From Desulfosudaceae bacterium (GTDB lineage Bacteria; Desulfobacterota; Desulfobacteria; Desulfobacterales; Desulfosudaceae), in contig CAXXDV010000001.1 in NCBI GenBank assembly GCA_963674745.2, forward strand, positions 2,240,001-2,304,000: 64,000 nucleotides of DNA, in the 5' to 3' direction. Under the pieces are notes generated by a model. It was given only the letters and a program-made list of their open reading frames with translations. It was not told the DNA's origin and made no database searches. The translations under genes and the position numbers were made by a program. Below, in pieces: positions 31,124-47,541 of the stretch. Each line of letters begins with the position of its first letter. Position 1 is the stretch's first letter.

Positions 31124-33126
31124 GCGCGCCAAGCGAAGCTTGGTGCGTCTTGCGGGGTGCAAGTCCCCGTCGGGTGAGGCCTAACCAGCCACCCGTATCG
31201 AGTGTTGCGTGATTGGGAAGGATAGGCATACCGTCGAACGACCCACACGAAGCGTACACAGAGAATCGTACAGGCCGTAGGGGAGTCCGTGCTCCCTGAA
31301 GTGCTGGTATCGCTTCGAAAGGAAGCTTGGTTCCGGTCGCCGAGAGTTGTAACGTACTCGAAGGCAACACAAAAGCATCCGTTATGGTGAGGGTGTGGAG
31401 GGCCGGCGGAGTTATCAAGCCGTGGCATGTACGAAGAGACGCACACAAGAACTTGGGAGGCCCATCCGACTCCTGCGCGGCAATATGGTCCGGCTGACAC
31501 TTAGACACGAAAGGGAAACCCGGATACAGATATCAGCCGAGCCTAAGTAGCCGCAGGGCAGGAAGGGGAACCAAAGCGAAAGTGGAGGAACCCTGGTTGG
31601 GTGGGAGTCGTATCGAGCATAGTACTCTGAGCGTGGGAAAGCCACGTACATGGGGAAGGACTTGACGGAAGTACGTAGCCCGCAAAGGAAACACATGCCG
31701 GACACAGCAGGATCGGATAAACGTGTGCAAACCTCACTGCGGGGGATAGCCAAAACGGCTCGGTTCAACACGCAGCATCGCTTTCGGGATCTTTATGGTC
31801 TGCTTAATACGGAACTGCTTCATCTGGCGTGGAAGGGCTTGAATAAAAGTTCGGCCATAGCCGATGACGACATCACCGTCAAGACATACAGTCAGGACCT
31901 GATCGCCAACCTGGAAGGGCTGGCGGAACAGCTCCGGCAGAAGAGATACCGGGCGAGATTGGTCAAAAGACGTTTTATTCCAAAGCGTAACGGTAAGAAA
32001 CGGCCCCTGGGCATCCCCGCCTTGGAGGACAAACTTGTCCAGAAGGCGGTGGCCATGATCCTGACGGAGATATACGAACCGGATTTTCTGGATTGTTCGT
32101 ACGGATACCGACCGGATAAAGGGGCCAAGGACGCGATCGGCGACCTGACGTTTCAGTTTCAGTTCGGCGTATTCGGCTATGTTGTGGAAGCGGATATCAA
32201 AAGTTATTTTGATACCATTAACCATGATAAGCTGATGGCCATACTGGAGAAACGGATCAATGATCGGGCGTTCTTGCGGTTGATCAGAAAATGGCTGAAA
32301 GCGGGCATCCTGCATCCGGACGGACAGGTCGAGCATCCGGTTACCGGGACGCCCCAGGGAGGACTCGTATCTCCCGTCCTGTCGAACATTTATCTGCATG
32401 AGGTGCTGGATAAATGGTTCCAGGAGGTAGTCAAACCGAGGCTGGCAGGCCGTGCCATCATGTGCAGATATGCGGATGACTGGGTATGCGCCTTTCAATA
32501 TCGGGAAGATGCGGACCGGTTCTATGATGTTCTTTCGAAACGCCTCGGCTGCTATGGTCTTGAGGTGGAGCCGAGCAAGACAAAGGTCATCCGGTTCAGC
32601 CGATTCCAACCCGGCCGGGAGCGTGACAGGACGTTCACGTTTCTGGGGTTCGAATTTTACTGGTCAAAAGACCGCAAAGGTGTTGCCCGGGCACAGCGTC
32701 GCACGGCTCCGGCCAAGCAACGTGAAGCCTTGGCGCGTATGAGAGATTGGTTGAAGAAGTCCCGGCATCTGCCGAAAAGACAAATCTTTGATGGGCTGAA
32801 ACGTAAGCTGACCGGCCATTACAATTATTTTTATGTACGGGGGAATGCCCGTGCGGTATGGTCGTTTTACAGAGATGTGATCAGCTCGGCATTTAAATGG
32901 CTGAATCGCAGAAGCCAGCGTAAAAGCTATAATTGGGAACGATTTAAGCAGGTCTTAGAATACGTAAAAATACCGAAACCGAAGCTGACGGAAAAGAAAC
33001 GTTTTCGCACGTGCGCGTTGAGCTAAGCCGACACGGAAGCGAGTATAACCGAGGAACCGGATGCGGGAAAACCGCACGTCCGGGACTGTGTGGGGGGTGC
33101 CGGGTAACCGGCATTCCTACCACGAC
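31124..33126 (+). mobile_element. Group II intron inserted in attC8 R' on the top strand
   Basis: 5' GCGCG; domain V/VI-like CCGGATGCGGGAAAACCGCACGTCCGG...CCTACCACGAC. Removal restores GTTA^TACGC, complementary to the cassette end GCGTATAAC (33589-33597). Confidence 0.93.
31650..33026 (+). CDS. ltrA: Group II intron reverse transcriptase/maturase, no endonuclease domain
   Basis: RPLGIP, SYGYRP, ADIKSYFD, GTPQGG, RYADD, FLGF, domain X; ends without HNH; true start uncertain. Confidence 0.95.
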   Translation: MGKDLTEVRSPQRKHMPDTAGSDKRVQTSLRGIAKTARFNTQHRFRDLYGLLNTELLHLAWKGLNKSSAIADDDITVKTYSQDLIANLEGLAEQLRQKRYRARLVKRRFIPKRNGKKRPLGIPALEDKLVQKAVAMILTEIYEPDFLDCSYGYRPDKGAKDAIGDLTFQFQFGVFGYVVEADIKSYFDTINHDKLMAILEKRINDRAFLRLIRKWLKAGILHPDGQVEHPVTGTPQGGLVSPVLSNIYLHEVLDKWFQEVVKPRLAGRAIMCRYADDWVCAFQYREDADRFYDVLSKRLGCYGLEVEPSKTKVIRFSRFQPGRERDRTFTFLGFEFYWSKDRKGVARAQRRTAPAKQREALARMRDWLKKSRHLPKRQIFDGLKRKLTGHYNYFYVRGNARAVWSFYRDVISSAFKWLNRRSQRKSYNWERFKQVLEYVKIPKPKLTEKKRFRTCALS

Positions 33127-33141
33127 TACGCAAAGGATATT

Positions 33142-33588
33142 ATGGACGAGAAAGAATTTTGGAATATCTTGGGAATGCTCAACTGGGATAAAACGGGTGA
33201 TGATGAAGCAGTCGTTGAGCCAGTTGTAAGCTATCTATCCAACCAATCGGACGAAGATATATTCCAATTTGAAGAGTTGCTCGCTCAAAAGCTATATGCG
33301 CTTGATACAAAAGCACATGCTAAAGAAATTGGTGAGGACGCATACATAAATGATGATCAATATTTTTCAGTTGATTGTTTTTTATATGCACGGTGTGTAG
33401 TCGTCGCAAACGGTAAGGAATTGTTCGAAGATGCTCTAAACAATCCATCAGAATTTCCTAAAGATATGGAGTTCGAAGCTATATTGTACGTTGCTCAAGA
33501 TGCTTATGAACGAAAAAATGGGAAAAAATGGAATTATGTATCCCCCACCAGTTATGAAACATTTAAAAATGTTGGTGGTTGGGAATAA
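33142..33588 (+). CDS. Cassette 9: DUF4240-like protein
   Basis: MDEKEFWNIL, FSVDCFLYARC..VANGK, FEAILYVA. Confidence 0.75.
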   Translation: MDEKEFWNILGMLNWDKTGDDEAVVEPVVSYLSNQSDEDIFQFEELLAQKLYALDTKAHAKEIGEDAYINDDQYFSVDCFLYARCVVVANGKELFEDALNNPSEFPKDMEFEAILYVAQDAYERKNGKKWNYVSPTSYETFKNVGGWE

Positions 33589-33590
33589 GC

Positions 33591-33714
33591 GTATAACAAC
33601 GCCACTCACACTGACTCGCAGGGGCGGGCTGTTTTTGTATTTGCGTAGTTTGGTGTTAAACTCACTTTAGCGAAGTCCGCAACCCCTGCTCGCCGGTGGT
33701 GGCGGACGTTATGC
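33591..33714 (+). repeat. attC9 (family C)
   Basis: GTATAAC...GTTATGC. Confidence 0.9.
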
Positions 33715-33724
33715 GTCATAAGAA

Positions 33725-34315
33725 ATGATCATAATCAATAAAACCACTTTAAGTTTAATTCTCTGCCTGCTCTTATTATTGATTGGCTTTGGTTGCCTAC
33801 CCAAAGCATCGTATCATATGGAAGGTTATGAAGTTAAACCTGACAGATCAGAACATGGAACAGTTGAATTATATTGCAGAATTGTCTGTACACATTCCGG
33901 ATCATCAAGTTTAGTTGCAGGACACAGTGTATATGGAGCGCCTTATAAGTTAGAAGTTGAAGCGAGGACTTACGATAATAGATGGGAAGATTTGACAATC
34001 CGAAAAATTAATATTGCGCTTAAAGACAAAACTATCAAAATATTGGAGGGGTCTTTGAGCGACCAAGTTTTCCAATTTAATCGAAGCCCTTCAAGGCATG
34101 ATCCGCACGAAAATGAACACAAAGAAATTGTATATGAAACGGAAGCCCAATTTCCAATTGAGTTGACGTGGAATAAAGATAAAACTGCAGAAATCACGGT
34201 TCTGTTTAGCCTGACCAGTAAAGGTGAAACATTAAATGGCGTTCATCACTGCAAAGTAGATGCATATGAAATAAATCGTGAATCATCAATGTGGGATGCT
34301 ATGATGGGAATATAA
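33725..34315 (+). CDS. Cassette 10: putative lipoprotein
   Basis: Hydrophobic leader ending GFGC. Confidence 0.75.
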   Translation: MIIINKTTLSLILCLLLLLIGFGCLPKASYHMEGYEVKPDRSEHGTVELYCRIVCTHSGSSSLVAGHSVYGAPYKLEVEARTYDNRWEDLTIRKINIALKDKTIKILEGSLSDQVFQFNRSPSRHDPHENEHKEIVYETEAQFPIELTWNKDKTAEITVLFSLTSKGETLNGVHHCKVDAYEINRESSMWDAMMGI

Positions 34316-34329
34316 CCCAATAGTAAAAC

Positions 34330-34455
34330 GCATAACAAGCCAGCCCAGCAGGATCGCCAGGGCAGGCTTTGTTGGGTAACCGGGGGAAGTGAAAATCTTT
34401 AAACTATAAGTCAGTCGGTGGAAGCCCTGGCGCCCTCTGGCTGAAGACGTTATAA
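34330..34455 (+). repeat. attC10 (family A)
   Basis: GCATAAC...GTTATAA. Confidence 0.9.
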
Positions 34456-34460
34456 ACATT

Positions 34461-34961
34461 ATGCAAAATGTCTTTGTAATAACTGTAGTTGCTTTTTTTC
34501 TCGATGTAATTCTTTCTGCCACTTGGAATTCAACATATTTCCTGTTTGGAGTGCTTGCTTATAAAAAATCATATCGTATTAAAGGCAAGACCCTTGATGA
34601 TCTACCTAACAATATAAGAAAGGATGGTGATCATATCACTTGGGCAAGGTATAAGATTAAGCAAGTAGATAACAGGACATTTCTTTTAAGAAAAAATTTA
34701 TGGTATTTCGGTTTCAGCTTTTCAATGCCAATCATTCGATGGAGAATCAAAGTTCATGACAATGGACAATATTTTAGCTTAACGGCTTTGTATCAATTCT
34801 ACCCAATAGTCCTTCTCTTAGGAATAGGAACAATGTCAGTTCCAGCATTTATCACCATTGTATCCATATTTGTGGCCTTCTTCATATTGAGAACCAAGCT
34901 TGGAGTTGAACCTTTTCATAATGCAGAAGTTGAAAAAATTTGTGGTTTTATAAGAAATTAA
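34461..34961 (+). CDS. Cassette 11: membrane hypothetical protein
   Basis: N- and C-terminal TM segments. Confidence 0.75.
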   Translation: MQNVFVITVVAFFLDVILSATWNSTYFLFGVLAYKKSYRIKGKTLDDLPNNIRKDGDHITWARYKIKQVDNRTFLLRKNLWYFGFSFSMPIIRWRIKVHDNGQYFSLTALYQFYPIVLLLGIGTMSVPAFITIVSIFVAFFILRTKLGVEPFHNAEVEKICGFIRN

Positions 34962-34969
34962 AAAATAGT

Positions 34970-35091
34970 TTATAACAATTCAGCCCAGTAGGATCGCCAG
35001 GGCAGGCTTTGTTGGGCAACTGAGGGAAGTGAGCAGTAATCATCTATAATTAAGTCGGTGGGAACCCTGGCTCCCTCTGGCTGAAGACGTT
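34970..35091 (+). repeat. attC11 (family A), R' interrupted by a MITE
   Basis: TTATAAC...GGCTGAAGACGTT then MITE. Confidence 0.88.
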
Positions 35092-35307
35092 GAGGCTGTA
35101 GAAAAAGTAAAATTTGAGTAAAACATAGGGTTTTGCCGCCAATTTTTGAAAACCTGAAAGTTATATAAGATTTTGTATGATCTCTGTGAAGCCATCTAAA
35201 ATAGATGGTTTGCAAGGATTTTATGTTTTAGTATAAAATATATTCTACGAAGGTGTTTTTCTGAAAAAAGATAAAATTTATCGAAAATAGACTTTTCCTA
35301 CAGACTC
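35092..35307. mobile_element. 216-bp MITE with 17-bp TIRs and GTT target duplication
   Basis: GAGGCTGTAGAAAAAGT / ACTTTTCCTACAGACTC (15/17 match); GTT at 35089-91 and 35308-10. Confidence 0.85.
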
Positions 35308-35344
35308 GTTATGTGCCGGATTAAAATGTGTTGAGACCTTCTAA

Positions 35345-35524
35345 ATGATATTTCGTGTATTAAAATACATTGCTTCTGAAATGCTTGAGTGGATTATATG
35401 CATAGCTCTTATTGTCACTCTAATGCTAGCTTTCCGTTATTCATATTTTTGGATTTTATTTTCTGTTTTGCTGGTAGGAGTTGTATATTACATTTTGCGA
35501 AAAAAACCCGACGTCAAAATATAG
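35345..35524 (+). CDS. Cassette 12: 59-aa two-TM small protein (below the ORF-track cutoff)
   Basis: MIFRVLKYIASEMLEWIICIAL...RKKPDVKI; cassette ends GTTATGTGC / GCACATAAC. Confidence 0.55.
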   Translation: MIFRVLKYIASEMLEWIICIALIVTLMLAFRYSYFWILFSVLLVGVVYYILRKKPDVKI

Positions 35525-35602
35525 ATATAGGGAATAAAAATAATCAGAACATAAGAAAGTTTGAAAAATAAAAAATTATAATTTACCAAAATAAAAACAA
35601 GC

Positions 35603-35726
35603 ACATAACAACACCATGCACTTGACTCGCAGGGGCGGGCTGTTTTTCAAACGTCGCGGTTCGGTGTTAACGTGGCTTTGCAATAGTCACTTTTCCCCTG
35701 CTCCCAAGTGACGGTGGACGTTATCT
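35603..35726 (+). repeat. attC12 (family C)
   Basis: ACATAAC...GTTATCT. Confidence 0.9.
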
Positions 35727-35744
35727 TTTAGAAGCATCGAAAAT

Positions 35745-36389
35745 ATGAAGATAAAATTTGTCGGTATAGTTTTAATTGTAATTGGGTTCACAATCCCATT
35801 TGTCTTAAAGGAAATTGTACCGACCTTCATGTATGCCGCGATATTATCGCAAATTTGTTTTTGGTTCGGCCTCTATACAATCCTTACCCCTATTCATCCT
35901 AATAGCATTTACACACCATATCTTCGGTGGGCGCGATATGGTGTTTTATTGAATTTTGGGCTGAGTTTTTTTGCAATAGCATTTGGTTATATGTTTTTAT
36001 ACTTTGGTCTTGATAAAATATTTGGTGTCTTTTTAATACGTTTGCTCTTTTTCTTAACAAACCCCATTCAATCCACTTTTGATTTTTTCGCTCCCAATCC
36101 TATGGTGCTACAGCCTGACGAATCTTTCATTGGAACAATAAGCTTTATTAGGGCGTTGCTAATTGAGTTCTTCAATATATTATTCTTTTGTTGCGTGGGT
36201 GTTTTAGCCAAAATAATTAAAGAAAAGATAACAAGGCCGCGCAATGGATCGCCAGGGCACCCGGCTTTTGAACATTCGGGGGTAAACGAATATAAACCAT
36301 CTTTAAGGCAAGTCAGTGGAAGCCCTGGCTCCCATTGGCGGCCGCCGTTCGGCAAGCCTATAAATATTGTACAAGTGTCAAAGGTATAA
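35745..36389 (+). CDS. Cassette 13: polytopic membrane protein, reads through the whole of attC13
   Basis: No stop before R'' AGATAAC. Confidence 0.75.
   Translation: MKIKFVGIVLIVIGFTIPFVLKEIVPTFMYAAILSQICFWFGLYTILTPIHPNSIYTPYLRWARYGVLLNFGLSFFAIAFGYMFLYFGLDKIFGVFLIRLLFFLTNPIQSTFDFFAPNPMVLQPDESFIGTISFIRALLIEFFNILFFCCVGVLAKIIKEKITRPRNGSPGHPAFEHSGVNEYKPSLRQVSGSPGSHWRPPFGKPINIVQVSKV
36226..36353 (+). repeat. attC13 (family A)
   Basis: AGATAAC...GTTCGGC. Confidence 0.9.
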
Positions 36390-36413
36390 TTAATTTTAAT
36401 CAATAATTCCACT

Positions 36414-37007
36414 ATGAAAGTGAAACGATATTGTATAGTATTATTTAGATTTGCACTCCTTAATTTATTTGGATTAGTCTTAATCTTTTATGTGCCACTT
36501 GAGCTTTGGTACTTATCGTGGCCAAAAGTAAAAGCGGAGATTATTAAATCTGTGCATGAGTATGATTGCTACCCGCCGAACTCACCTAAATGTACTCCAA
36601 AAGCAACAATAGTATACAAATATGATATTATTGGGAAAAGTTACACATGTAATAATTATTCTCTCCATGGAGTATATAAGCCTTCGTCAATAATCCATTC
36701 GTTCAAAACACAACAGATTCTAGTAGAGCGATTATTAAATAATTACCCGGTCAATAGCAGCATTACAGTCTATTACAACAAAAACAAACCCCATCAGGCC
36801 GCAATCAACCCAAATATGTCAATGGGTGAGTGGCTGTATATTATAGTATGGACATTTATTGGTGGAATAGTTGTTCGCTCATGGACTATGAAAAATAAAG
36901 AACATCTTTCTCTGACTTATGATTTTAAACTGTTTATTACCTGTGTTATTTTACTTTTATTAGGTTCGATTATCGGAAATGCAATCATTGTGCTCCTAAC
37001 GAAATAA
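36414..37007 (+). CDS. Cassette 14: DUF3592-like membrane protein
   Basis: WPKVKAEI..YKY..GKSY..ITVYYN..P. Confidence 0.7.
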   Translation: MKVKRYCIVLFRFALLNLFGLVLIFYVPLELWYLSWPKVKAEIIKSVHEYDCYPPNSPKCTPKATIVYKYDIIGKSYTCNNYSLHGVYKPSSIIHSFKTQQILVERLLNNYPVNSSITVYYNKNKPHQAAINPNMSMGEWLYIIVWTFIGGIVVRSWTMKNKEHLSLTYDFKLFITCVILLLLGSIIGNAIIVLLTK

Positions 37008-37013
37008 AAAGAT

Positions 37014-37137
37014 GCCGAACCACACGTTGGTAACGACCGCAAGGGGCGGTCGATTTTGGCACTTACCAAATAATTTAAAAAACGTGTCTTCGGCGGCGGA
37101 CCGTTCCCCTTGCGGCCCCACACCGTGGACGTTCGGC
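37014..37137 (+). repeat. attC14 (family B)
   Basis: GCCGAAC...CCGCAAGGGG...CCCCTTGCGG...GTTCGGC. Confidence 0.9.
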
Positions 37138-37148
37138 CGACACATAAT

Positions 37149-37532
37149 ATGCAACCATTTACATCACAAGGTAGAAAATTACGATTGGCGCTAATGCCAA
37201 TTTCATATTTTATTGCCTTCGCGACAATATATATTATGTTGATCTGCCTTGCTAAAATTGAAAACTCAAGTATCAAAGGTCTTCTTCAAACAGATAATTT
37301 ATGGCCGCTCGCGATTATCCTCCCGTGTTTTATCTTTGGGAAAATTCTGGGGCTTATGGCTATAAATGGCATTGCATATTTAATTCCCCATTTGCGTAAT
37401 GTTTTTGAGAATGAAGTAGCTGAAACAGGTCGTAATAATTTTTTCCAGGCAATGAAGGGACTTAGTATCGCTCTTGCCATATCGTTAATCATTACTGTGT
37501 TAGGAGCTATTTTATTCCTCCAATATAAATAA
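37149..37532 (+). CDS. Cassette 15: membrane hypothetical protein
   Basis: About three TM segments. Confidence 0.75.
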   Translation: MQPFTSQGRKLRLALMPISYFIAFATIYIMLICLAKIENSSIKGLLQTDNLWPLAIILPCFIFGKILGLMAINGIAYLIPHLRNVFENEVAETGRNNFFQAMKGLSIALAISLIITVLGAILFLQYK

Positions 37533-37537
37533 TTATG

Positions 37538-37666
37538 GCCGAACAAGGCAGCTCAAGAGGATCGCCAGGGCATTCGGCTTTTGAACATTCGGGGGGAAAT
37601 AAACATTAACCGTCTTTAAGGCAAGTCTGTGGGAGCCCTGGCGCCCTTTGGCTGCCGCCGTTATGT
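37538..37666 (+). repeat. attC15 (family A)
   Basis: GCCGAAC...GTTATGT. Confidence 0.9.
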
Positions 37667-37676
37667 TTCAAAAGGC

Positions 37677-38189
37677 ATGAGAAAAAATAATTTCCAGGCT
37701 CTATTATTCTTTGTTGGCATGATTTTCATGTTTTTGCTTTGTTCATGCCAGTTTTCTGAAAACAGGCATCTCAAACGAGAGGTAAAAAGAAATGAATTGA
37801 TTGGTACATGGATAGCAACGCCATTTGCGATAAAATGTTTACAATGGTCAGGTTTTAAGAATCACCTTGCTACAAACGATCATCAGTTGGTTTTAAATGA
37901 GAATGGATCATGCAGATACAAATCATTTCAAAATTTTTTTATTATCTCAGGTTCAACTCCCAAATATCTTGATGTCGATGATTGTAAGTGGGAACTTATC
38001 AGCAAAACCGAACACCAACAACAGTATATAACTATCACCCTATCATCGTCACCTGAGGGAAGCGGAGGCCCTTATTTTTATTTCGACGAAAAAGACAAAA
38101 AATTGATCCTGTGGCAATATTGTAGTGATCCAGATCAGTGGAAATATATGGAATTTTTTAAGGTAGATTCAAAAAACAAAAAAACATAA
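37677..38189 (+). CDS. Cassette 16: putative lipoprotein
   Basis: Leader ending LCSC. Confidence 0.75.
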   Translation: MRKNNFQALLFFVGMIFMFLLCSCQFSENRHLKREVKRNELIGTWIATPFAIKCLQWSGFKNHLATNDHQLVLNENGSCRYKSFQNFFIISGSTPKYLDVDDCKWELISKTEHQQQYITITLSSSPEGSGGPYFYFDEKDKKLILWQYCSDPDQWKYMEFFKVDSKNKKT

Positions 38190-38311
38190 CCATGCCGCCC
38201 AAAGGATCGCCAGGGCAGTCGGATTTTGAACAGTCGGGGGGAGACGAACATTAACCATCTTTAAGGCAAGTCAGTGGAAGCCCTGGCTCCCATTGGCGGC
38301 CGCCGTTAAGT
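38184..38311 (+). repeat. attC16 (family A)
   Basis: ACATAAC...GTTAAGT. Confidence 0.9.
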
Positions 38312-38324
38312 GCATATAAAACAT

Positions 38325-38936
38325 ATGTCAAAATGGTATATTTTGCCCGGAATGGGCGCAACTTCAGCGATGTATGATTCGCTTAAGCCCGAAATTGATT
38401 TTGAGGTCAACTTTTTAGATTGGCCTGAATATAAGGGTGAAACAACCTACATGGAGGTTGCAGCACGGATTATAACTGAAAACGATATATCAGACGGAGA
38501 TATTGTTGGAGGATCATCCCTGGGGGGAATGGTCGCTCTCGAAATTGCACAGATATTGCGGCCAAGAACAACTGTGCTTCTTGGGAGTGCTATAAATAAG
38601 CGAGAAGTTCAGAGTGTCCTTTCTATCTTGTCCCCTTTGGCAGCTGTAACCCCAATATCATTGATTCAATTTTTGGTGGGGAAACACAAAAGTTTAATAG
38701 CGAAAATGTTTTCCAATTGCGATTCTGGATTTATTCGGGCCATGTGCTTGCATTTACGTTCATGGCCAGGCTATTCCGGCCCGAATGAGAACATAATTCG
38801 GCTTCATGGCCGGAAAGACCATGTAATTCCGTGTCCAGCAACTGGCGCAGAGATTATTGATGGTGCTGGCCATTTATTGGCAATGACACATCCTAAAGAA
38901 ACTGGGCAGTTTTTAAAAAATGTACACAGCACTTAA
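38325..38936 (+). CDS. Cassette 17: alpha/beta hydrolase
   Basis: LPGMG, GSSLGG, HGRKD, AGH. Confidence 0.85.
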   Translation: MSKWYILPGMGATSAMYDSLKPEIDFEVNFLDWPEYKGETTYMEVAARIITENDISDGDIVGGSSLGGMVALEIAQILRPRTTVLLGSAINKREVQSVLSILSPLAAVTPISLIQFLVGKHKSLIAKMFSNCDSGFIRAMCLHLRSWPGYSGPNENIIRLHGRKDHVIPCPATGAEIIDGAGHLLAMTHPKETGQFLKNVHST

Positions 38937-39059
38937 CCATTCAGCGCAATAGGATCGCCAGGGCACCCGGGTTTTGAACAGCCATGCTGAGTTGAAATTT
39001 TAACCATCTTTAAGTCAGTCGGAGGAAGCCCTGGCGCCCTTTGGCTGAAGACGTTCGGC
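38931..39059 (+). repeat. attC17 (family A)
   Basis: ACTTAAC-CATTCAGCGC...GTTCGGC. Confidence 0.9.
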
Positions 39060-39718: not shown

Positions 39719-40312
39719 GTGAATGAGAGTATTTGTTGGTATGAGATAAAACGAAAGACTATATTCTCGTATTTAATCCCGATACTTTTGACTGTATTCT
39801 GGCTAGGTTTTATAACGTTACTAAGCCAGTGCTCGGAAAAAGAAAAAAAATATGACAAGGAATTATGGCAACCCTGGCTTGAGATTAAGAATGAAAAAAT
39901 ACAATTTATCGAATTACACCCTATTCTCACAACTGGATACTACACCATCTCAAATGTGGCTAGGATTGAAGATAAACAATTGATTTCAAAAATTAAAGAG
40001 AATTTAAACAGAAGACTTATGACAAATGAAGATAAGATCGGTTACCATTGGTTCTCAAGTAAACGTCTTCGAATAACAGCTTATACAGAAAAGAAAGAAT
40101 TTTCATTTATCTTATTTTTTCATGGGGAATTTCCAAGTGTTCAATATCAAATGTTGGTGCCCACAAACGAAAAGCATAGCGCATTCAGGCCGCAGCAGTG
40201 CCCCGGTTTCTACGCTAGCGGTGAAGGATGGAGAAGTGCTAAATTGTATAATGTAATAAATGAATTTATCAGTCACTCAAAAAAGGTTCATTGGAACAAA
40301 TATGCTATTTAA
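39719..40312 (+). CDS. Cassette 19: membrane-anchored hypothetical protein
   Basis: GTG start, N-terminal TM. Confidence 0.7.
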   Translation: MNESICWYEIKRKTIFSYLIPILLTVFWLGFITLLSQCSEKEKKYDKELWQPWLEIKNEKIQFIELHPILTTGYYTISNVARIEDKQLISKIKENLNRRLMTNEDKIGYHWFSSKRLRITAYTEKKEFSFILFFHGEFPSVQYQMLVPTNEKHSAFRPQQCPGFYASGEGWRSAKLYNVINEFISHSKKVHWNKYAI

Positions 40313-40373
40313 CTTAAACAATGTTCAATGAAACGCAAATAGATAGTGAAAATAATTCATTGAAGATAAAAGC

Positions 40374-40502
40374 ACAGAACAAGGCATCGCAAGAGGATCG
40401 CCAGGGCATTCGGGTTTTTGAACGGCTTGGGGAAATTGAACATTAACTTTCTTTAAGACAGTCAGAGGAAGCCTTGGCGCCCTTTGGCTGCCGCCGTTAT
40501 GT
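40374..40502 (+). repeat. attC19 (family A)
   Basis: ACAGAAC...GTTATGT. Confidence 0.9.
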
Positions 40503-40508
40503 CGAAAT

Positions 40509-41093
40509 ATGAAAAAGCTCATATCAATATTTCCAGCCATTTTAATATTAATTATTATTGGAATGTCGGCTTACAATGTCAAAACAGACCCAGATTATAA
40601 AACCTACGATGTTTTGAATGAAGCGATTGAAAAAGGTGACATTTCGACTGTAAAAACGATTATTGGCAAAGACAAAAAATTTCTTTCGTTTAGTAGGCCG
40701 GCACTTAACGAAGCTGTTTTTAATTGCCAACTTGAGATAGCTAAATACTTGATAAAAGCGGGCGCAAAGGTAAATCATAAATATGGGCGTCATAATTCGA
40801 CTGCTCTTCATGTAGCAGCATATAATTGTGATAATGCCGAAATCATAAATTTATTGATCAGGAACGGTGCTATAGTTGATATAAAAAATGATCTATTTGA
40901 AACACCGCTTATGCTCGCATCCGAAAATGGAAACATCAAAGCGATGAAGGTGCTTATAGATAATGGTGCAAATGTTAATGCAAGGAGTAGAGCATACGGA
41001 ATCCCTGTAGATTATGCGAAAAGGAATAGCTCCTTAAACGCAATTGATTTTTTGAAACAAAAAGGGGCAAAAACAATCAATAAAAATTTTTAA
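40509..41093 (+). CDS. Cassette 20: exported ankyrin-repeat protein
   Basis: TALHVAA, TPLMLA, GANVN. Confidence 0.88.
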   Translation: MKKLISIFPAILILIIIGMSAYNVKTDPDYKTYDVLNEAIEKGDISTVKTIIGKDKKFLSFSRPALNEAVFNCQLEIAKYLIKAGAKVNHKYGRHNSTALHVAAYNCDNAEIINLLIRNGAIVDIKNDLFETPLMLASENGNIKAMKVLIDNGANVNARSRAYGIPVDYAKRNSSLNAIDFLKQKGAKTINKNF

Positions 41094-41094
41094 G

Positions 41095-41155
41095 ACATAA
41101 CGAACAAGGATAGATCGTGCGAGGTAACGAGCCACGATCTTATCCGGGGTTGAAC
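41095..41155 (-). repeat. attC20: short attC oriented opposite to the array, belonging to the recombinase/IS91 unit
   Basis: Minus strand GTTCAAC-CCCGG-ATAAGATC...GATCTAT-CCTTGTTC-GTT. The unpaired base is in the arm next to GTTCAAC; the L'-R' spacer is long (8 nt). Confidence 0.7.
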
Positions 41156-41349
41156 AAGCCCGCTGAACTTTCACTATAAGAAAATATTTAATTTGGGATA
41201 GAGGGCAAAAGGCGTGAACCTGGAAAGTGCTTTTTTTGCAGGACGCAGGGATCCCTTAACCTGAAGGCAGGTTTTAAAAAGACAATTTTGTTCATGGGTG
41301 TGATTGCCTCCTGTTTTTTGTTGTGCCGGGTCATAACCGGGTCAGCGTT

Positions 41350-42405
41350 TTATCCCGGCTTCCAGGCCGCGTAACGGAACCCTTTGATGACCATCGGGAT
41401 GTGGCAACGGGGGCACTTTACAGCAGGTCTCGGGCGTTGGGTTTTTATTCCAAGCCGGACATGCAGGATCAATTGCACCAGTTGCAGCGTCTTTTTGGCG
41501 TTGCCATGAAGAAACCCGTAATCGCGCACCCTGCGGAAGCCCTTGGGCAGGACATGCTGCAGAATGAGCTGGAGAAAATCTTCTCCGTCAAGCGTACGAT
41601 AACGGGTATGGCCGGTGCCGCTTTCAGTGTACCTGAAGGTGACCCGGCCATTTTCATTGGCCACAATATTCTTTTCACTGATTACACCCCGGTATAAGTA
41701 CCGGGACAGGTACTTTATGACCGGGAGCCCGTTACCGACCTTTTCACAATCCACGACCCATTTTGCAGGTGTATTTTTAGGCACATAAAGGCCGGCTTTT
41801 CTTAAAGCGGCCAGAAAACGGGCACGAAAGACCGTGGCCAGGTTAAACTCATTAAACAGATATTTTCCTTTTTTCTTTTTCCATTGTCGCCGGCGCTTAT
41901 CAATCCCGCCGCCGGGCACCACCACATGGATATGAGGATGATAATCCAGACTTCGGGTGTTCGTATGCAGAACCATGGTCAAACCGATTTCTGCGCCCAT
42001 TTGCTTCGGGTTTAAGCCAAAATCCTTGAGTGTTTCGGACACGCAGGAAAAGAAGATTGAATATACATCCCGCTGATTGTTCCAGGCCAGCGGACGGAGT
42101 TCAAACGGCAGCGTAAACGTCGCCATAAAGTAAAGCACCGGAAGCAGTTTGTCTTGCTGCCGGTCGATCCACTGAGTGGCCTCATGGTTCTGGCATTTGG
42201 GGCAGCTCCGATGTCCGCAGGACATCGGGTGCCATTTCCCATGATGGCAGGCAGGACACTGAACGTAAAATTCTCCGGAAGCAGGTGTGCGACATCTGCG
42301 TATGGCACGCAAGGATTTAAGATGCCCCGGCAAGGCTTTTTGGCCGTGCTTTTCCATAAACCTGTCAGCGTACTGATCAATAATTGATGCCAGTTCCATA
42401 ATCAT
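41350..42405 (-). CDS. IS91-family rolling-circle (HUH/Y2) transposase
   Basis: Cxx[10 protein letters not shown] zinc motif, [26 protein letters not shown]. Confidence 0.92.
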
Positions 42406-43306
42406 ACCTTTCTAAAATCAACATGGATTGTATTTATCAGCTCATTTAAGACAGTCAGGCTGTCCTGCTCCGTTATATCGCTCAGATGCGTATAACGTGC
42501 TGTTGTGGAGGGACTGGCATGGCCAAGCAGGGCCTGGATGTGACGGAGGCTTAAGCCGCGTTCAAGCAGGTGGGTGGCAAAACTGTGACGCAGGGAGTGA
42601 ATGGATACTTTTTTTTAATGCCGCATTCGGCGACGACCACTTTCATGGCTCTCTGACAGCCGCCTTTATCCATAAAGTTGGTGGCCGCCCGGATGGTCTC
42701 TAAAGACCCCTTGCAATTGGGAAATAACAAATTAGGATGACGATGCTTACGCCAAAGCTCCCGCAGGCCCGTCAAAGTCAGGTCCGGCAATGGCAGCATT
42801 CGGTCCTTATGACCTTTACCCCGGCGGATATGGACCTTTTTGCGCTCAGCATCAATGTCCCCGATCTGAAGGGACAACGTCTCTTCCAGACGCAATCCCA
42901 TGGAATAGGTTGTCAGCAGAAATACCCGGTAACGCAATTTCTTGGTTTTGCCGATGATCCGTTCAACCTCGGAAACGGTAAGAATGTCCGGTATGGTTTT
43001 GACTTTCGGCGGTTTGACGATCTTGATCCATTCCCAGTCCTTTCCGAGCACATACCGCCAGAAGAACTGCAAGCCGTTACGGTCAACCCTGACCGTGCTC
43101 CAGGAATGGCTATCCACCAGCTGAGAGAAATAACCTTCCAATTGTTCCGGACGCAAATGGTCGGGACAACAATCAAAATGGTTACGAATGCGGCGGACTG
43201 AACGGGCATAGAGATCAATGGTCCTCGGACTCATACCCTGAAGCTTGAGCAACTCCAGGTGCCTCTCATAAAGCCGGTTGAAACGTTTTACTTCCGAATC
43301 GTTCAT
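42402..43306 (-). CDS. Tyrosine recombinase with SAM-like N-terminus; full length requires a -1 frameshift at 42608-42614
   Basis: YSMGLR and GKGHKDR in frame 0; [21 protein letters not shown] in the -1 frame; stop overlaps the transposase start (ATGA). Confidence 0.88.
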
Positions 43307-43393
43307 GGTATACTCCTTTCATTGGGGGTGCCCGTAATTGAGCACGTATTGGAGTATACCTTGTTTTTTATTAATCCGCCGCGTAGCGGCTTC

Positions 43394-43521
43394 GTTCAAC
43401 CATTCAGCGCAAGAGGATCGCCAGGGCACTCGGGCTTTGAACAGCCGTACTGAATTGAACATTAACCGACTTTAAGTCAGTCAGAGAAGGCCCTGGCGCC
43501 CTTTGGCTGAAGACGTTATGA
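43394..43521 (+). repeat. attC21 (family A; probably the original attC of cassette 20)
   Basis: GTTCAAC-CATTCAGCGCAAGAGG...GTTATGA. Confidence 0.9.
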
Positions 43522-43534
43522 AATATAGCCTGAT

Positions 43535-44707
43535 ATGAAAGCCATCAAACCATTATCAATCATGCTTTTTTGTCTTATTGTTGTTTCCTGCGCCCCCAAT
43601 TCTTCTAATATAAGGGCAACAGATAATCAGATGGGCATGGATAACCATTCTGTTAATTATAGTTCGGGTGATATGTTAAAAATTGAAAATTGTACCAAAG
43701 AAGTCAATACAGAATATGACCTAATAGAGCAGGCGTTTGATTGTTATGAAGAGTTCGATCAAAAGACAATCAATGACATTACTTCCAACTACTCCATCTC
43801 TATTTTTATCAATACGTTACAAGACGATAATTACGAGTATCGTGCAGGAGCTGCAAGGATTCTTGGATTATTGAAATATTCAAAATCAGTTCCAGATTTA
43901 TTATACATGGCAATAAACGACCCAAATCCATATTGTAAGGTAAGCGCAACTTTAGCCCTCTATCAAATTGATGAGGAGCCGGCAAAAAACGATGCTTTTT
44001 CTAATCTGATAAAGGACTTTACAAATCCAGAAACAGAATCGGTTTACAGAGGCATCATCGCAGCCCTCATGGGGGATATAGGTGATCAAAATGCAACCCC
44101 TTATTTACTCACAGCTTTAAAAGATCCCAAAACAGATCCATTTGTACTCGATTTTGTAATCTTCGCTTTGGGAAAAATTAAAGGTGAAAATATACCTGCT
44201 GCACTTAATGAATTCATTTTAAGGCATGATATTGAACCATATATTCGAAAAGATGCCATAATGGCGTTAGGCTCAATTGGTGATGATGATTCAATCTCGT
44301 TCTTATCTGATATCTTGAATTCAAAAGATTACAATTATTCTATTAGGGCAGATGCGGCTTCAGCATTAGGTTACGAATCAAACCATAGCCAAAAGGCCAT
44401 TTCAGCCTTAATTAATGCCACAAAGGATGAAAATAAAGGTGTCCGTTTTTTTGCTGTTTGTGCCTTGGGAAAAATACCTGATGAGCGTGCAACGAAGGGT
44501 TTAATTAATGCTCTGAACGATGATTGTGACCGTGTTCGAGTTACGGCAGTCAATTTTTTAGGATTAACCGGTGATGAATCATCTATACCAGCGTTAACAA
44601 GGTTATCAAAAGATGATGCGATAATTTATGGTCAGCCAATTAAAGAACACGTTCAAAAAGCGATTGAGCAAATTAAGGAAAAAGCTATAAAGGATAAATC
44701 AAAATAA
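43535..44707 (+). CDS. Cassette 22: HEAT/PBS-lyase repeat lipoprotein
   Basis: VVSC lipobox; repeated R..AA.ALG.I. Confidence 0.85.
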   Translation: MKAIKPLSIMLFCLIVVSCAPNSSNIRATDNQMGMDNHSVNYSSGDMLKIENCTKEVNTEYDLIEQAFDCYEEFDQKTINDITSNYSISIFINTLQDDNYEYRAGAARILGLLKYSKSVPDLLYMAINDPNPYCKVSATLALYQIDEEPAKNDAFSNLIKDFTNPETESVYRGIIAALMGDIGDQNATPYLLTALKDPKTDPFVLDFVIFALGKIKGENIPAALNEFILRHDIEPYIRKDAIMALGSIGDDDSISFLSDILNSKDYNYSIRADAASALGYESNHSQKAISALINATKDENKGVRFFAVCALGKIPDERATKGLINALNDDCDRVRVTAVNFLGLTGDESSIPALTRLSKDDAIIYGQPIKEHVQKAIEQIKEKAIKDKSK

Positions 44708-44716
44708 CAGAAAATT

Positions 44717-44839
44717 TCATAACCACACCATGCACTTGACTCGCAGGGGCGTTCTGCTTTTTCAGTATCGCAGTTCGGTGTTAACGTGGCTTCGTAAACG
44801 TCACAGTTCCCTGCTCCCAAGTGACGGTGGACGTTGTGC
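44717..44839 (+). repeat. attC22 (family C)
   Basis: TCATAAC...GTTGTGC. Confidence 0.9.
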
Positions 44840-44859
44840 ATCTATAACATTATATAAAT

Positions 44860-46131
44860 ATGGAACCTATATTTCACAGTATAATCTTATGGGTTAAGAT
44901 TTTAAGTATACCAATAGCTTCTATTGTTTATAGATATGTTAAAAAAAAGCCATTCTTTTACAAAGAAAACCCAGATGCAAATTATCAGGAAAAATGGCGT
45001 TCTGGGCATGCATGCAATATTTTTCAAATGTTTGGTGGCGCACGAAATTGTCTTTGGTTTTCGATCCTAAAAGATGAAATAATTATCTGTCCGCATTTTC
45101 CTTTCAACTTATTATTTTTGCCTGAAATATGGGGATGTGAGCATCACATTAAAGGGAAAGAAATTATATCGATTGATGAGAACCCGAGATTAGGTGGAAT
45201 AGTAATCTGCTTTAAAAAAGGGATTGGAGTCAAAAAATTTAGAATTTATCCCAAGCACAAAGAAATTTTTGTGGGTTTCGCTAAAGGGATATTAGCTAAT
45301 CACAAAAAATCGATATCCTCCTCGCTTGTCTTGGACGAAGAAAAGCATCTCTGCCAACCGCCACACACTAAAAAGCGCTATGTACCGAAAAGTATATACC
45401 AATTAATGTTTATAATATTTTTTTTCGGAGTTATTGGTCCAATTTGGTGGTTTGTTATTCCAAATCTTTACAAAAAAGATGGCCTTTACACTGATTTAGA
45501 GCAAAGGAATGTTAAGGCGGTTGAAAAAAGAATTGATAGTCAAGAGGAAGTGATTAATCGAAGATTTTATGGATTAAATGCCACACCATTACATATTGCC
45601 GCTGGTTTGGGTGATATTGAAATGATGGATATGTTATTGCGAAAAGGTGCTAACATTGAAGTGAAGGGTTATAGGAACCTATGTGAACCGATCCATTTAG
45701 CGGCAGGCAAGGGACACATAAAAGCTGTTGAATTTTTATTAAAAAATGGCGCACATATTGATGCCAAAGATAGGGATAACGAAACCCCATTACATGATGC
45801 CGCTTATAATAATCAAGCCGAAATGATAGGTTATCTTGTTAAACATGGAGCAAACATTAATGCAAAAAGCAACTGTTATCATCTTACGCCACTTGAAGAA
45901 GCTGTTAAATTTGAACGGGCTATAGCAGTGCGTGCTTTGCTCGAAAATGGTGCCAAAGCTGATCTTGATGCTTTAATATTAAGAGTTCAAAGAGACATGG
46001 AAGGTGCGCCTTTAGCGGATGAAACACGAAAAAAAGAATGGACAGATGTATTAGAAATATTAAGGGAATTCAAGTCAAGGAATGCACAACCAGTAAATTC
46101 AGCCGACGCAAAAAACCGCGCGGCTGATTAG
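44860..46131 (+). CDS. Cassette 23: membrane protein with C-terminal ankyrin repeats
   Basis: TPLHIAA, PIHLAA, TPLHDAA; reads into its attC. Confidence 0.85.
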   Translation: MEPIFHSIILWVKILSIPIASIVYRYVKKKPFFYKENPDANYQEKWRSGHACNIFQMFGGARNCLWFSILKDEIIICPHFPFNLLFLPEIWGCEHHIKGKEIISIDENPRLGGIVICFKKGIGVKKFRIYPKHKEIFVGFAKGILANHKKSISSSLVLDEEKHLCQPPHTKKRYVPKSIYQLMFIIFFFGVIGPIWWFVIPNLYKKDGLYTDLEQRNVKAVEKRIDSQEEVINRRFYGLNATPLHIAAGLGDIEMMDMLLRKGANIEVKGYRNLCEPIHLAAGKGHIKAVEFLLKNGAHIDAKDRDNETPLHDAAYNNQAEMIGYLVKHGANINAKSNCYHLTPLEEAVKFERAIAVRALLENGAKADLDALILRVQRDMEGAPLADETRKKEWTDVLEILREFKSRNAQPVNSADAKNRAAD

Positions 46132-46142
46132 CGGCGTTAGGC
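46084..46142 (+). repeat. attC23 (classical 59-bp type)
   Basis: GCACAAC-CAGTA-AATTCAGC...GCTGATT-AGCGGC-GTTAGGC. Confidence 0.93.
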
Positions 46143-46152
46143 GCATGAATAT

Positions 46153-46593
46153 TTGATTCGAAGCTACATATTAAATGGCCTTATCGCATCAGTGGGTGCC
46201 GCATTTATAACGGCTGCTGCCAATATGCTCAATACTATTTGGCATGCTTATCCACCCGACAGATCTGGAATGTTCATCGGATTTGCAGTTTTCTTTGGTG
46301 TTGGTCTATGGTGCCTTTATGGTTCGATAAGCAATATTCGAACACGAATCCGGAACCGCAACACCTCAGAGACTTCCCCAAAAATGTTGTGGCCAGAGCG
46401 CATAGCAGCTATTCTTTGCGGTAGCACAATTCTTGGGGTTGTTCTTTTGTATATAAACTTCCTTCTTGAGCCTTTCGGCACACAAAGAGGCTCCTTAGTT
46501 TTTCATTATATCGCTCTGGGGCTATTATTTAGCGGTATCGTTGGTTCTATCGTATTGCCGATTATTAAAGCTTTAAGACGATCGAGTGCATGA
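46153..46593 (+). CDS. Cassette 24: four-TM hypothetical protein
   Basis: TTG start; hydrophobic segments. Confidence 0.7.
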   Translation: MIRSYILNGLIASVGAAFITAAANMLNTIWHAYPPDRSGMFIGFAVFFGVGLWCLYGSISNIRTRIRNRNTSETSPKMLWPERIAAILCGSTILGVVLLYINFLLEPFGTQRGSLVFHYIALGLLFSGIVGSIVLPIIKALRRSSA

Positions 46594-46603
46594 TGACGAC
46601 GGC

Positions 46604-46732
46604 GCCTAACAAGGCATCGCAAGAGGATCGCCAGGGCATTCGGCTTTTGAACATTCGGCGGAAACTGAACATTAACCGTCTTTAAGACAAGTCATTGGAA
46701 GCCCTGGCGCCCTTTGGCTGCCGCCGTTAGGC
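46604..46732 (+). repeat. attC24 (family A)
   Basis: GCCTAAC...GTTAGGC. Confidence 0.9.
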
Positions 46733-46743
46733 AAAAATATATT

Positions 46744-47286
46744 ATGAAGAGGACTAAGCTATTACTTGATGTTCCGTATTCCATAGATAAAACCATTAAA
46801 GTCCTTGAAGACAATATTGATCGCCCCAAAATGCTTACTTTAATTTCAAAGAAAAATCATAAATGCCCATTCATTGGAAAAATTAAAGGGAACAGATTCA
46901 TTTTTCGTGAACAAAGCATATGGGGATACTCTGGCCTATATGACAGGAATAATTTGCATCCATACTTTGAAGGACATATTGTACCAACCGGGGAATTCTG
47001 CCAAATTTCCGGTAAATTTACCAATGGCCCGGTAGCTGGTTGTTTGATGCCAGTACTCTTAACCTGGTTCGCTTTCCTATGTGGAATATCTTCTATTGCA
47101 ATTGTTCATAACTGGTTTACTGGCGCTGACGGACCAGCTCCAGTCATTTTGATTTTCACACTTCCTGTATTTTTGTTATCAATTTATGGTTTATTTTTTT
47201 CAAATCCTTCACGAAAGCGAGACGTAGAAAAATATATAGAAACCTTTGAAAAATTATTGAATGCAAAAATAAATGAGACTGCCTAA
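46744..47286 (+). CDS. Cassette 25: membrane hypothetical protein
   Basis: Two C-terminal TM segments; stop in R''. Confidence 0.75.
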   Translation: MKRTKLLLDVPYSIDKTIKVLEDNIDRPKMLTLISKKNHKCPFIGKIKGNRFIFREQSIWGYSGLYDRNNLHPYFEGHIVPTGEFCQISGKFTNGPVAGCLMPVLLTWFAFLCGISSIAIVHNWFTGADGPAPVILIFTLPVFLLSIYGLFFSNPSRKRDVEKYIETFEKLLNAKINETA

Positions 47287-47541
47287 CACATATGAGCCGC
47301 CCGGAGTCAATGGGGAATAAAAATTTTTTAGGGACTGAGTTTTTACTCCCCCTTTCCGCAGTTAAAACAGAACGGACTCACTGTCTTTAATTCAAAGCGC
47401 GTAGTAAAATAGCTGCTACAAAGGCCGCGCAAAGGATCGCCAGGGCATTCGGCTTTTGAACATTCGGGGGAAATTGAATATTAAACATCTTTAAGGCAAG
47501 TCGGTGGAAGCCCTGGCTCCCATTGGCGGCCGCCGTTCGGT
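47281..47541 (+). repeat. attC25 (family A) split by a 133-bp insertion
   Basis: GCCTAAC[insert]AAGGCCGCGC...GTTCGGT; compare intact attC13. Confidence 0.85.
47288..47420. mobile_element. 133-bp non-coding insertion immediately after R''
   Basis: Absent from sibling attC13; no TIR or clear TSD. Confidence 0.65.

Follow-up and report, generated by a model that had tools for sequence, protein, structure and literature searches.

Four mobile element lineages at defined bases of attC core boxes in a cassette array of a Desulfosudaceae bacterium

The 64,000-nt stretch of DNA analyzed here (hereafter the window, meaning the whole stretch; contig CAXXDV010000001.1 of the Desulfosudaceae bacterium assembly GCA_963674745.2, positions 2,240,001 to 2,304,000) contains an array of 26 gene cassettes with 27 attC sites, delimited by their R''/R' pairs at 26563-49903; all array counts refer to the + strand. 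The 27 R' boxes (..CGTT..) span 26687 to 49897. Four of the attC sites carry an insert at a core box, namely a group II intron in R' of the 8th attC, a miniature inverted-repeat transposable element (MITE) in R' of the 11th, an IS91-family unit directly after the AAC of R'' of the 20th, and a 132-nt non-coding piece of an IS110-type element directly after the AAC of R'' of the 24th. A sequence-only reading of the window had proposed that four unrelated mobile elements occupy attC core boxes without interrupting a cassette open reading frame (ORF). We confirmed all four inserts. They leave every cassette ORF intact, with the stop codons of the two upstream genes lying just before or inside R'', and the GTT/AAC triplets are indeed kept in every case.

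The array is of the CALIN type (attC sites clustered without an integron integrase). A search with TIGR02249 yielded no integron integrase gene in the window, and the three intact full intI genes of the genome that exceed the cut-off of this model all lie outside it, the nearest ~122 kb away; the array is thus one without its own integrase. Its G+C content is 0.36-0.47 vs ~0.51 outside. Using an nhmmer profile built from the attC sites of the window, we located 251 attC sites genome-wide. Ten arrays with a combined length of 180,923 nt, or 3.26% of the 5.55-Mb genome, hold 245 of these. An alignment of the attC sites of the window is dominated by three attC sequence types of the genome and is thus unlikely to generalize. 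With three intact intI genes and ten arrays of ~250 sites, one of them 51 kb long with 89 sites, this integron load is unusually large.

In 21 of the 26 cassettes, R'' matches the complement of the first 9 bases of its own cassette at 8-9/9, and 48-118 nt separate it from the next R'. The rule fails in five cases, namely at the four occupied sites and at an attC at ~49069 (49065-49075), the sole unoccupied site to break it, whose R'' reads GCATAAG with a point change of the conserved triplet from AAC to AAG. Once the inserts are removed, the four occupied sites obey the rule as well, and by this rule each empty site can be rebuilt to base precision.

The 8th attC, from its R'' (GCATAAC) through the first four bases of R' (GTTA; 31000-31123, + strand), forms the 5' exon of a 2003-nt group II intron (31124-33126, + strand), which lies in sense orientation to the cassettes at GTTA^TACGC inside R'. 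When GTTA and TACGC are joined across the intron, the rebuilt R' GTTATACGC agrees with R'' GCGTATAAC (33589-33597) at 9/9. The sequence-only reading had placed the intron in R' of this attC, which stands, with the refinement that it enters four bases into R' and not at the G^TT crossover point. The intron ends are set by a second, identical copy and by an RF00029 match to domains V and VI (D5-D6) that ends exactly at 33126, and the region of domains I-IV matches RF02005 (31160-31421; 111.2 bits, gathering score 49). The intron encodes a reverse transcriptase (RT)/maturase of 458 aa (31650-33026, + strand; TIGR04416, 342 bits, cut-off 300), for which RVT_1 is the sole Pfam hit (E 1.4e-33) and no endonuclease domain was detected in the Pfam search; 626 nt of the intron lie outside this ORF. 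We take the small size, the lack of an endonuclease domain, and the hairpin-side location to be typical of class IIC. The best solved-structure relatives of the RT, 5hhj and 7uim, are presumably group IIC RTs, with scores close to those of IIA/IIB RTs (small margin), and the best plasmid-borne relatives are ~41% identical and come without a class label.

The second intron copy (C3:2339030-2341057) likewise lies at GTTA^T, with a rebuilt R' that agrees with the next R'' TCGATAAC at 8/8, and the first base of the 3' exon is T in both copies. Based on alignment and sequence, a domain I hairpin loop (GAGAGU..ACUC) presents UAACG at 31350-31354 (+ strand) as a candidate exon-binding site 1 (EBS1). 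This loop is the exact complement of CGUUA, the 5' exon end and R' core, which suggests an EBS1-IBS1 (intron-binding site 1) pairing of the intron with R'. CGTTAT is offered by 95 of the 251 attC sites of the genome, two of which are occupied by the intron. The first 25 bases of the intron (31124-31148) form a perfect 11-bp hairpin, GCGCGCCAAGC-GAA-GCTTGGTGCGT.

The genome holds further group II introns at attC sites. A third family, recognized by matches to RF02001 and RF01998, runs antisense to the cassettes beside the R'' side of attC and is present in seven copies, one with a truncated RT (C3:1855099-1857099) and six ORF-less ones of ~710 nt (C3:1848295-1848978, 1852262-1852971, and 1853759-1854486; C1:1482579-1483289, 1484818-1485528, and 2101316-2102026). 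A further sense-oriented intron (C3:~1849480-1851730) starts directly after attC ..GACGTTAT, with its RT gene in two ORFs and a D5-D6 match of 66 bits. An RVT_1 search of the whole 5.5-Mb genome gave five matches, every one of them within an attC array, and yielded no RT gene outside the arrays.

The 11th attC (34970-35091, + strand) ends in a GTT (35089-35091) that is followed by an AT-rich MITE of 216 nt (35092-35307, + strand) and a second GTT (35308-35310). The MITE encodes nothing and is bounded by 17-nt terminal inverted repeats, GAGGCTGTAGAAAAAGT and GAGTCTGTAGGAAAAGT, with 15 of 17 bases alike. With the MITE and one GTT removed, the site reads GTTATGTGC, which agrees with R'' GCACATAAC at 9/9. 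The genome contains 10 near-identical copies at seven sites, all in one orientation. Their left flank is attC..CGTT in six of the seven sites (CGAT in one) and their right flank GTTA in all seven; the upstream attC sites are of two sequence types, and the downstream cassette starts are all different. At C1:1492042-1492930, four MITEs lie head to tail in one attC R', each pair spaced by exactly GTT, and each newcomer seems to have entered the GTT left by its predecessor. The idea that the MITE is itself a tiny cassette equipped with an attC was rejected, as either strand folds only to the terminal-repeat stem, with GTT outside and no R''/L''/L'/R' layout. A promoter borne by the MITE was not apparent in 34900-35500, where three consensus matches were found vs 2.1 expected.

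Its terminal repeats recur in public sequences. A scan of metagenome contigs yielded at least 123 stretches, of which 79 loci were examined. The 1.8-kb metagenome element L101 has repeats identical to those of the MITE at 20-36 and 1807-1823, and these bound a 516-aa ORF that narrowly passes the model of the IS1182 family of DDE transposases (NF033551, 275.9 bits vs a cut-off of 270). Among the matches listed, 84 distinct outer flanks adjoin a MITE-type repeat; 32 end in GTT and 28 in AAC (60/84), the latter being a GTT junction viewed from the opposite side. The attC calls outside this genome, here and below, come from custom folding and complement tests and not from a curated attC model. Many of the GTT flanks are plain attC hairpins of 50-130 nt, and in folds of the matches listed, 8 of 27 beat 95% of the control GTT sites and 16 of 27 beat 80%. 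For the AAC flanks among these matches, 6 of 22 have a 9/9 cassette complement 363-752 nt away, vs 0.86% of shuffled controls. In Pseudoalteromonas, a relative of this IS1182 transposase with 46% identity has one end flanked by ..CTAAC; its other end was not found. The repeats, ORF, and flanks on public contigs together place the MITE, probably a non-autonomous derivative of an IS1182-family (DDE) element, in what appears to be a widespread DDE lineage inserting at the GTT of R' with GTT duplication.

In the 20th attC, the R'' of the ankyrin-repeat cassette with ORF 40509-41093 (ACATAAC, 41095-41101, + strand) is severed from the rest of its attC (AAC-CATTCAGCGCAAGAGGATCGCC ... GACGTTATG, 43398-43521, + strand) by a 2.3-kb IS91-family unit (41102-43400, - strand), and its distance to R' is 2416 nt vs ~117 normally. 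The unit has its oriIS-side end at 41102 and its terIS-side end at 43397, followed by a terminal or duplicated AAC at 43398-43400. The junctions read GACATAAC^GAACAAGG...CTTCGTTC^AAC-CATTCAGC, with 41102-43397 for the stretch between the two marks and 43398-43400 for the second AAC. The oriIS side has a subterminal hairpin of 12 bp, and the terIS side has the hairpin GCCGC-TAC-GCGGC. The transposase, a 351-aa HUH/Y2 enzyme with the motifs HPHIH and YLSRY (41350-42405, - strand), matches Y2_Tnp (E 4.6e-48), Zn_Tnp_IS91 (E 8.3e-28), and NF033538 (388 bits, cut-off 125). All four copies of the unit in the genome read ..YTAAC^GAACAAGG...CTTCGTTC^AAC.., lie in three attC sequence types, and differ on both sides.

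The AAC..AAC flanks are compatible either with an element that ends in ..GTTCAAC and inserts after YAAC, or with a 3-bp duplication. According to an account of the family (PMC13181058), IS91 elements make no target duplication, insert with the target tetranucleotide beside oriIS, and carry a like tetranucleotide at the terIS cleavage site. Under this rule, the unit would be GAACAAGG...CTTCGTTCAAC (cassette top strand) after YAAC; both cleavages would then follow AAC, and no staggered cut would be needed. The junctions fit this duplication-free reading and would also fit a 3-bp duplication.

Upstream of the transposase gene lies a gene for an IntI/Xer-like tyrosine recombinase (42405-43306, - strand), the stop codon of which overlaps the tnpA start codon. 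It is split over two frames: the N-terminal part (43306-42551) stops in frame, and the catalytic C-terminal part (42614-42405) continues in the -1 frame, the two being joined by a -1 shift at the slippery run A AAA AAG (A8G; 42608-42616, - strand). Both parts were seen in 65 of 80 public loci encoding relatives of the transposase, the other loci being cut by contig ends, and 51 of the 64 relatives with both parts in order keep the -1 arrangement at an A8/A9 run at 50-78% protein identity, which argues for a kept recoding signal and not for decay. The sequence points to programmed frameshifting or transcriptional slippage at A AAA AAG. Within the genome, the closest non-self relatives of the recombinase are the three IntI proteins (28-34% identity for the N-terminal part and 64% over 45 aa for the catalytic part), and its best NCBIfam match is the integron integrase at 89 bits vs a cut-off of 265. 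The positions ~180-249 of the IntI model, which correspond to the attC-specific insertion or extra domain, found no match in the recombinase. The recombinase most likely helps to find, target, or process the attC box.

Public relatives of the transposase (the best 80 of 101 encoding stretches) come mostly from Desulfobacterota and also from Gammaproteobacteria, Omnitrophota, Spirochaetes, and Victivallales. The triplet after the right end is GTT at 57 of 59 of these loci, as is the triplet before the left end at 34 of 35, and the right-flank consensus GTT-A-(T/G)-G-(C/T) is that of the core site. In 8 of 43 loci, the 9-nt flank has a full complement 320-1220 nt away, as is usual for a cassette, vs 1.65% of shuffled controls; a complement of at least 8/9 was seen in 22 of 43 vs 15.9%. 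Unconstrained minimum free energy folds of the rebuilt public sites are noisy and paired AAC with GTT in 7 of 18. The attC context is clear only for some of these loci, so that some members of the family may lie outside integrons, at words that resemble the core site.

The fourth insert directly follows the R'' (GCCTAAC, 47281-47287, + strand) of the cassette with ORF 46714-47286, whose stop codon TAA lies inside the box. The 132-nt non-coding insert (47288-47419, + strand) is bounded by AC..AC and corresponds to the end of an IS110-family element that lies distal to the transposase; the remaining attC, AAAGGCCGCGCAAAGGATCGCC ... GCCGTTCGG, follows at 47420-47541 (+ strand), and R'' is thereby 250 nt from R'. 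The sequence-only reading correctly saw an insert at R'', yet gave its length as 133 bp and its site as attC25, where we count 132 nt and the 24th attC. The window insert contains no ORF for a DEDD transposase. Four copies exist in the genome, all directly after ..TAAC; two are solo, and two continue into a 1.46-kb stretch with a 374-aa IS110-family RNA-guided transposase (NF033542, 206 bits), antisense to the cassettes. These full elements of 1.46-1.6 kb (C3:1845487-1847084 and C3:2335065-2336662) carry the 132-nt end at 95.6-99.2% identity. They have a long non-coding region downstream of the transposase gene, a layout that we take to be of the IS1111 type, and the nearest plasmid-borne proteins, 54-62% identical, are annotated as IS110 family only. 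The AC..AC bounds would fit a two-base core common to element and target, presumably a trait of the family. The first bases of the 132-nt piece, ACATATGAG, recur inside the long element as ACACATATTGAG; the piece may thus be a miniature alongside which a full element inserted, or the tip of a full element left alone.

To follow these inserts beyond the window, all four were aligned to the whole 5.55-Mb genome using BLAST. Random insertion of the same elements elsewhere, the outcome that the sequence-only reading named as speaking against it, was not found: all 20 copies (intron 2, MITE 10, IS91 unit 4, and 132-nt piece 4) lie in attC arrays, each family in the same box, at the same base, and in the same orientation, with different neighboring cassettes. 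Relatives do exist outside the arrays, namely another IS91-family gene 602 kb from any attC with no recombinase beside it, four IS110-family copies, and three IS1182-family copies with other terminal repeats. Targeting is therefore a trait of the lineages and not of whole families. Within the array of the window, the 27 x 2 core boxes of 7 nt each amount to 378 nt and make up 2.0% of the native array, in line with the earlier remark that they are a very small part of it, and 11.8% of its non-coding DNA. If insertions were confined to non-coding DNA, four of four inserts in core boxes would have a probability of ~2e-4, and chance becomes much more improbable again once the copies across the genome are considered.

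Given the positions, copy numbers, flanks, and protein families observed here, we consider it probable, at roughly 85%, that each of four separate mobile lineages has acquired, in evolution, a single defined base of an attC core box as its insertion point, and that the pattern reflects target choice and not the loss of harmful insertions. We infer the role of the recombinase and which enzyme would move each element. The intron would retrohome into the top strand, where the R' core CGTTA would be read by the RNA loop UAACG, probably beside the attC hairpin. Top-strand retrohoming would leave the intron sense-oriented and able to splice from the array transcript; a sense intron should be able to splice out of such a transcript, whereas an antisense one should not. 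The MITE, as a shortened IS1182-family (DDE) element, would have been inserted by a cut at the GTT of R' that duplicates GTT. The IS91 unit would enter 3' of the R'' AAC by the single-strand rolling-circle route of its family, carrying its own terminal ..GTTCAAC, which would give AAC on both sides without a true duplication. The IntI-like recombinase, part of every IS91 unit, would be made only after the -1 frameshift and be translationally coupled to the transposase. The 132-nt insert would be a solo end or a miniature of an RNA-guided element of the IS110 family, whose target is again this R'' position and which lies antisense to the cassettes. The sequence-only reading had listed retrohoming, terminal-inverted-repeat transposition, HUH/tyrosine recombination, and an unassigned chemistry; the list holds, and its second entry can be narrowed to an IS1182-family DDE element and its last to an IS110-family DEDD RNA-guided one.

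We also put forward, tentatively and with more doubt than conviction, a broader version. The attC site would be a common landing pad hit independently by at least four enzyme classes (ribozyme/RT, DDE, HUH, and DEDD). An IS91-type transposon would have taken on an IntI-like recombinase, kept at a low dose by the conserved -1 frameshift, to find or open R'', making it a two-enzyme transposon that borrows the site recognition of integrons. A second, unreported lineage of IS1182 type with its MITEs would home to the GTT of R'.

Several points weigh against targeted insertion by four lineages. All readings come from sequence alone, and present-day movement is not among the observations: none of the joints listed (15 of 118) between contigs of four sequencing runs and 30900-47700 is an empty-site or circle junction, many of the joints connect similar attC sites, and these contigs are uninformative on movement. 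Both intron copies share an identical 45-nt left attC, and two of the four 132-nt copies share the whole right flank, so that not every copy is an independent event. As for the intron itself, the RF00029 match to D5-D6 (33052-33126; 33.9 bits, E 2.4e-4) stays under the gathering score of 40, and the 5' bases are GCGCG vs the usual GUGYG. A transposase with the terminal repeats of the MITE is absent from this 5.5-Mb genome, whose three resident IS1182-family copies have other repeats; no partner element was found in 200 other genomes of the same order either, which gave only five partial matches of at most 57 nt. At the public IS91 loci, constrained folding placed only 5 of 18 in the best 5% of pooled control GTT sites and 7 of 18 in the best 8%, and a BLAST search found a sequence-similar repeat nearby in only 3 of 21, which we attribute to attC sites in those genomes being too dissimilar to one another. 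An R'' complement just upstream of the unit was seen in 0 of 18 public loci, although this test was misplaced, as the R'' of a cassette pairs with its own distant start. Finally, the target could be a GTTRRRY-like word that attC merely supplies in number.

For the IS91 unit alone, an alternative is that the tyrosine recombinase, and not the HUH transposase, integrates a circle into attC at GTT in the manner of IntI, and that the MITE might use the same enzyme. The joined ends of the MITE would read ..ACTC-GTT-GAGG.., like the ..GTTC-GTT-GAAC.. of the unit, and both elements are flanked by GTT..GTT, as expected from two GTT-crossover sites; the MITEs are moreover in one orientation and include the GTT-spaced tandem. 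The likeness of the recombinase to the three IntI proteins of the genome and to the integron integrase model (below its cut-off) points the same way, as does its retention in all 65 public loci with both parts visible, together with the conserved -1 frameshift site. Nevertheless, the transposase is intact (HUH, Y-x3-Y) and far above the IS91 cut-off, the unit ends have the subterminal hairpins of the family, and the family rule (PMC13181058) would account for the AAC..AAC flanks with no duplication. The attC-specific insertion of the IntI model (~180-249) is unmatched, and the MITE repeats belong to a DDE transposase family in which a 3-bp duplication is ordinary. Taken together, we regard integration by the recombinase as unlikely.

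A second alternative is that each element entered attC a single time and was then copied with its attC or cassette by the integrase or by homologous recombination between similar attC sites. The three intact intI genes and the 251 similar attC sites of the genome would provide the means, and such copying is hinted at by the identical 45-nt left flank of the intron copies, by two 132-nt copies that share >1.5 kb on the right, and by the four tandem MITEs spaced by GTT alone. However, copying of this kind would keep an element that lies on the right of G^TT tied to its downstream cassette. At the seven MITE sites, the cassette starts differ in all seven cases, and there are two upstream attC types. 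The four IS91 units differ on both sides, and the public loci come from several phyla with unrelated flanks, making copying highly improbable as the general explanation. The remaining alternative is that insertion is random and only ORF-sparing insertions survive and pile up in short, mostly attC non-coding stretches. It draws on the fact that 15,492 of the 18,697 native array bases lie in ORFs, so that most random hits would break a gene and survivors would lie in or near attC. It is next to untenable and is rejected here, since selection for intact ORFs could not bring about an identical base, box, and orientation each time (MITE sites 7/7, IS91 units 4/4, 132-nt copies 4/4, introns 2/2), leaves 0 of 20 copies in the other 96.7% of the genome unexplained, does not account for the same junctions in unrelated public genomes, and is not rescued by a single duplicated segment as an artefact, which the differing flanks exclude.

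Targeted insertion by separate lineages, the preferred reading, has precedents. One study (PMC3001079) establishes homing to attC for group IIC-attC introns and IS1111-attC elements and remarks on their common habit of lying near the 5' end of attC in antisense orientation. The intron of the window resembles group IIC-attC introns (S.ma.I2 and relatives) in its RT/maturase, the lack of a detected endonuclease domain, and its location at an attC core beside the hairpin in cassette arrays. According to the same study, known members insert into the bottom strand near the attC 5' end (R'') and are antisense (PMC3001079), whereas the ribozyme and ORF of our intron are on the + strand and it lies in the top strand, at R', and in sense. 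Reports of sense introns at attC are rare and comprise one unusual IIC intron in Enterobacter cloacae and one IIB intron downstream of attC (PMC7923331), and one in Shewanella algae (PMC9229058). The IS1111-attC group of IS110 (ISPa21, ISPst6) is described as DEDD elements near the attC 5' end (R'') in antisense orientation (PMC3001079), and the same position was found here for both full and both solo copies, directly after the R'' AAC and with the transposase gene antisense. The window itself holds only a 132-nt non-coding piece, which we liken to this group by position and orientation and not by clade placement.

The IS91-family unit shares with IS91, IS801, and IS1294 the HUH/Y2 transposase, subterminal hairpins, a short target word at both ends, and, on the duplication-free reading, the lack of a true target duplication (PMC13181058). 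The same account also gives the orf121 stop codon of IS91 itself as overlapping the tnpA start codon (PMC13181058), an arrangement matched by the recombinase gene of our unit. In contrast to these elements, the unit targets YAAC within RYYYAAC (the R'' box) and not GTTC/CTTG, and has an upstream IntI/Xer-like recombinase with a -1 frameshift in place of orf121. The Shewanella report notes ISShvi3 "adjacent to an attC site" in one integron and states that its authors saw no insertion sequence interrupting attC (PMC9229058). In the literature searched, which did not extend to subscription journals or ISfinder/TnPedia pages, we found no report of an IS91-plus-recombinase lineage homing to attC. 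Full-length L101, with the repeats of the MITE, passes the NCBIfam IS1182 model and in this respect resembles the IS1182 family, from which the lineage differs by its position at the GTT of attC R', its GTT duplication, and its miniature derivative. Within that same scope, we found no report linking IS1182 or such a MITE to attC. Apparently new here are the sense intron at R' with a matching EBS1, the IS1182 lineage and its MITE at the GTT of R', the IS91 element with a recombinase and a probable programmed frameshift at R'', and the presence of these together with the IS110-type element in one array. The advance is one of breadth (four enzyme classes, with two unreported lineages that appear to home to attC) and brings no new principle.

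Integrons are a main bacterial route for collecting and reshuffling genes, including those for resistance, and attC is the handle by which a cassette is moved. Previously, two kinds of attC-homing parasite were described; here, at least four occur in one array, and two of the lineages (IS91-type and IS1182-type) extend far beyond this genome. By a rough tally, ~10% of the 251 attC sites of the genome are occupied (introns 2+1+7, MITE 7, IS91 4, and IS110-type ~4). By inspection, sites with the MITE or the intron retain an R' that includes GTT, and the IS91 unit, which parts R'' from the rest of attC by 2.3 kb, should disable its site. The passengers might in this way tune cassette excision rates, as the sequence-only reading proposed. 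The attC sites may also be "safe" harbors, i.e. harmless to the host, as the sequence-only reading had it. If the targeting is true, it would add two new site-specific insertion systems, one of them a test case for cooperation between an HUH transposase and a tyrosine recombinase, and would explain broken or over-long attC sites that integron-finding software misses or splits. It would also raise the question of whether occupied sites lock neighboring cassettes together or bring promoters or splice sites into silent parts of the array.

Turning to the surroundings, the array is bordered by the gene of an AMP-binding enzyme (23754-25472) on one side and by a tRNA gene (50164-50235, - strand) on the other. 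Within it, one cassette is duplicated: 26663-26962 and 29257-29556 share 97% identity across 300 nt, and the attC sites of the two, at 27250-27296 and 29844-29890, are identical. Three cassettes encode ankyrin- or HEAT-repeat proteins (40509-41093, 43535-44707, and 44860-46131), two of which are unusually long (390 and 423 aa). Immediately ahead of the G^TT at 25659, which marks the first cassette boundary, at least three copies of a palindromic TGGAAAA..TTTTCCA lie within 25480-25660 with no integrase gene adjoining, and this cluster may be a leftover attI-like region or a cluster of binding sites.

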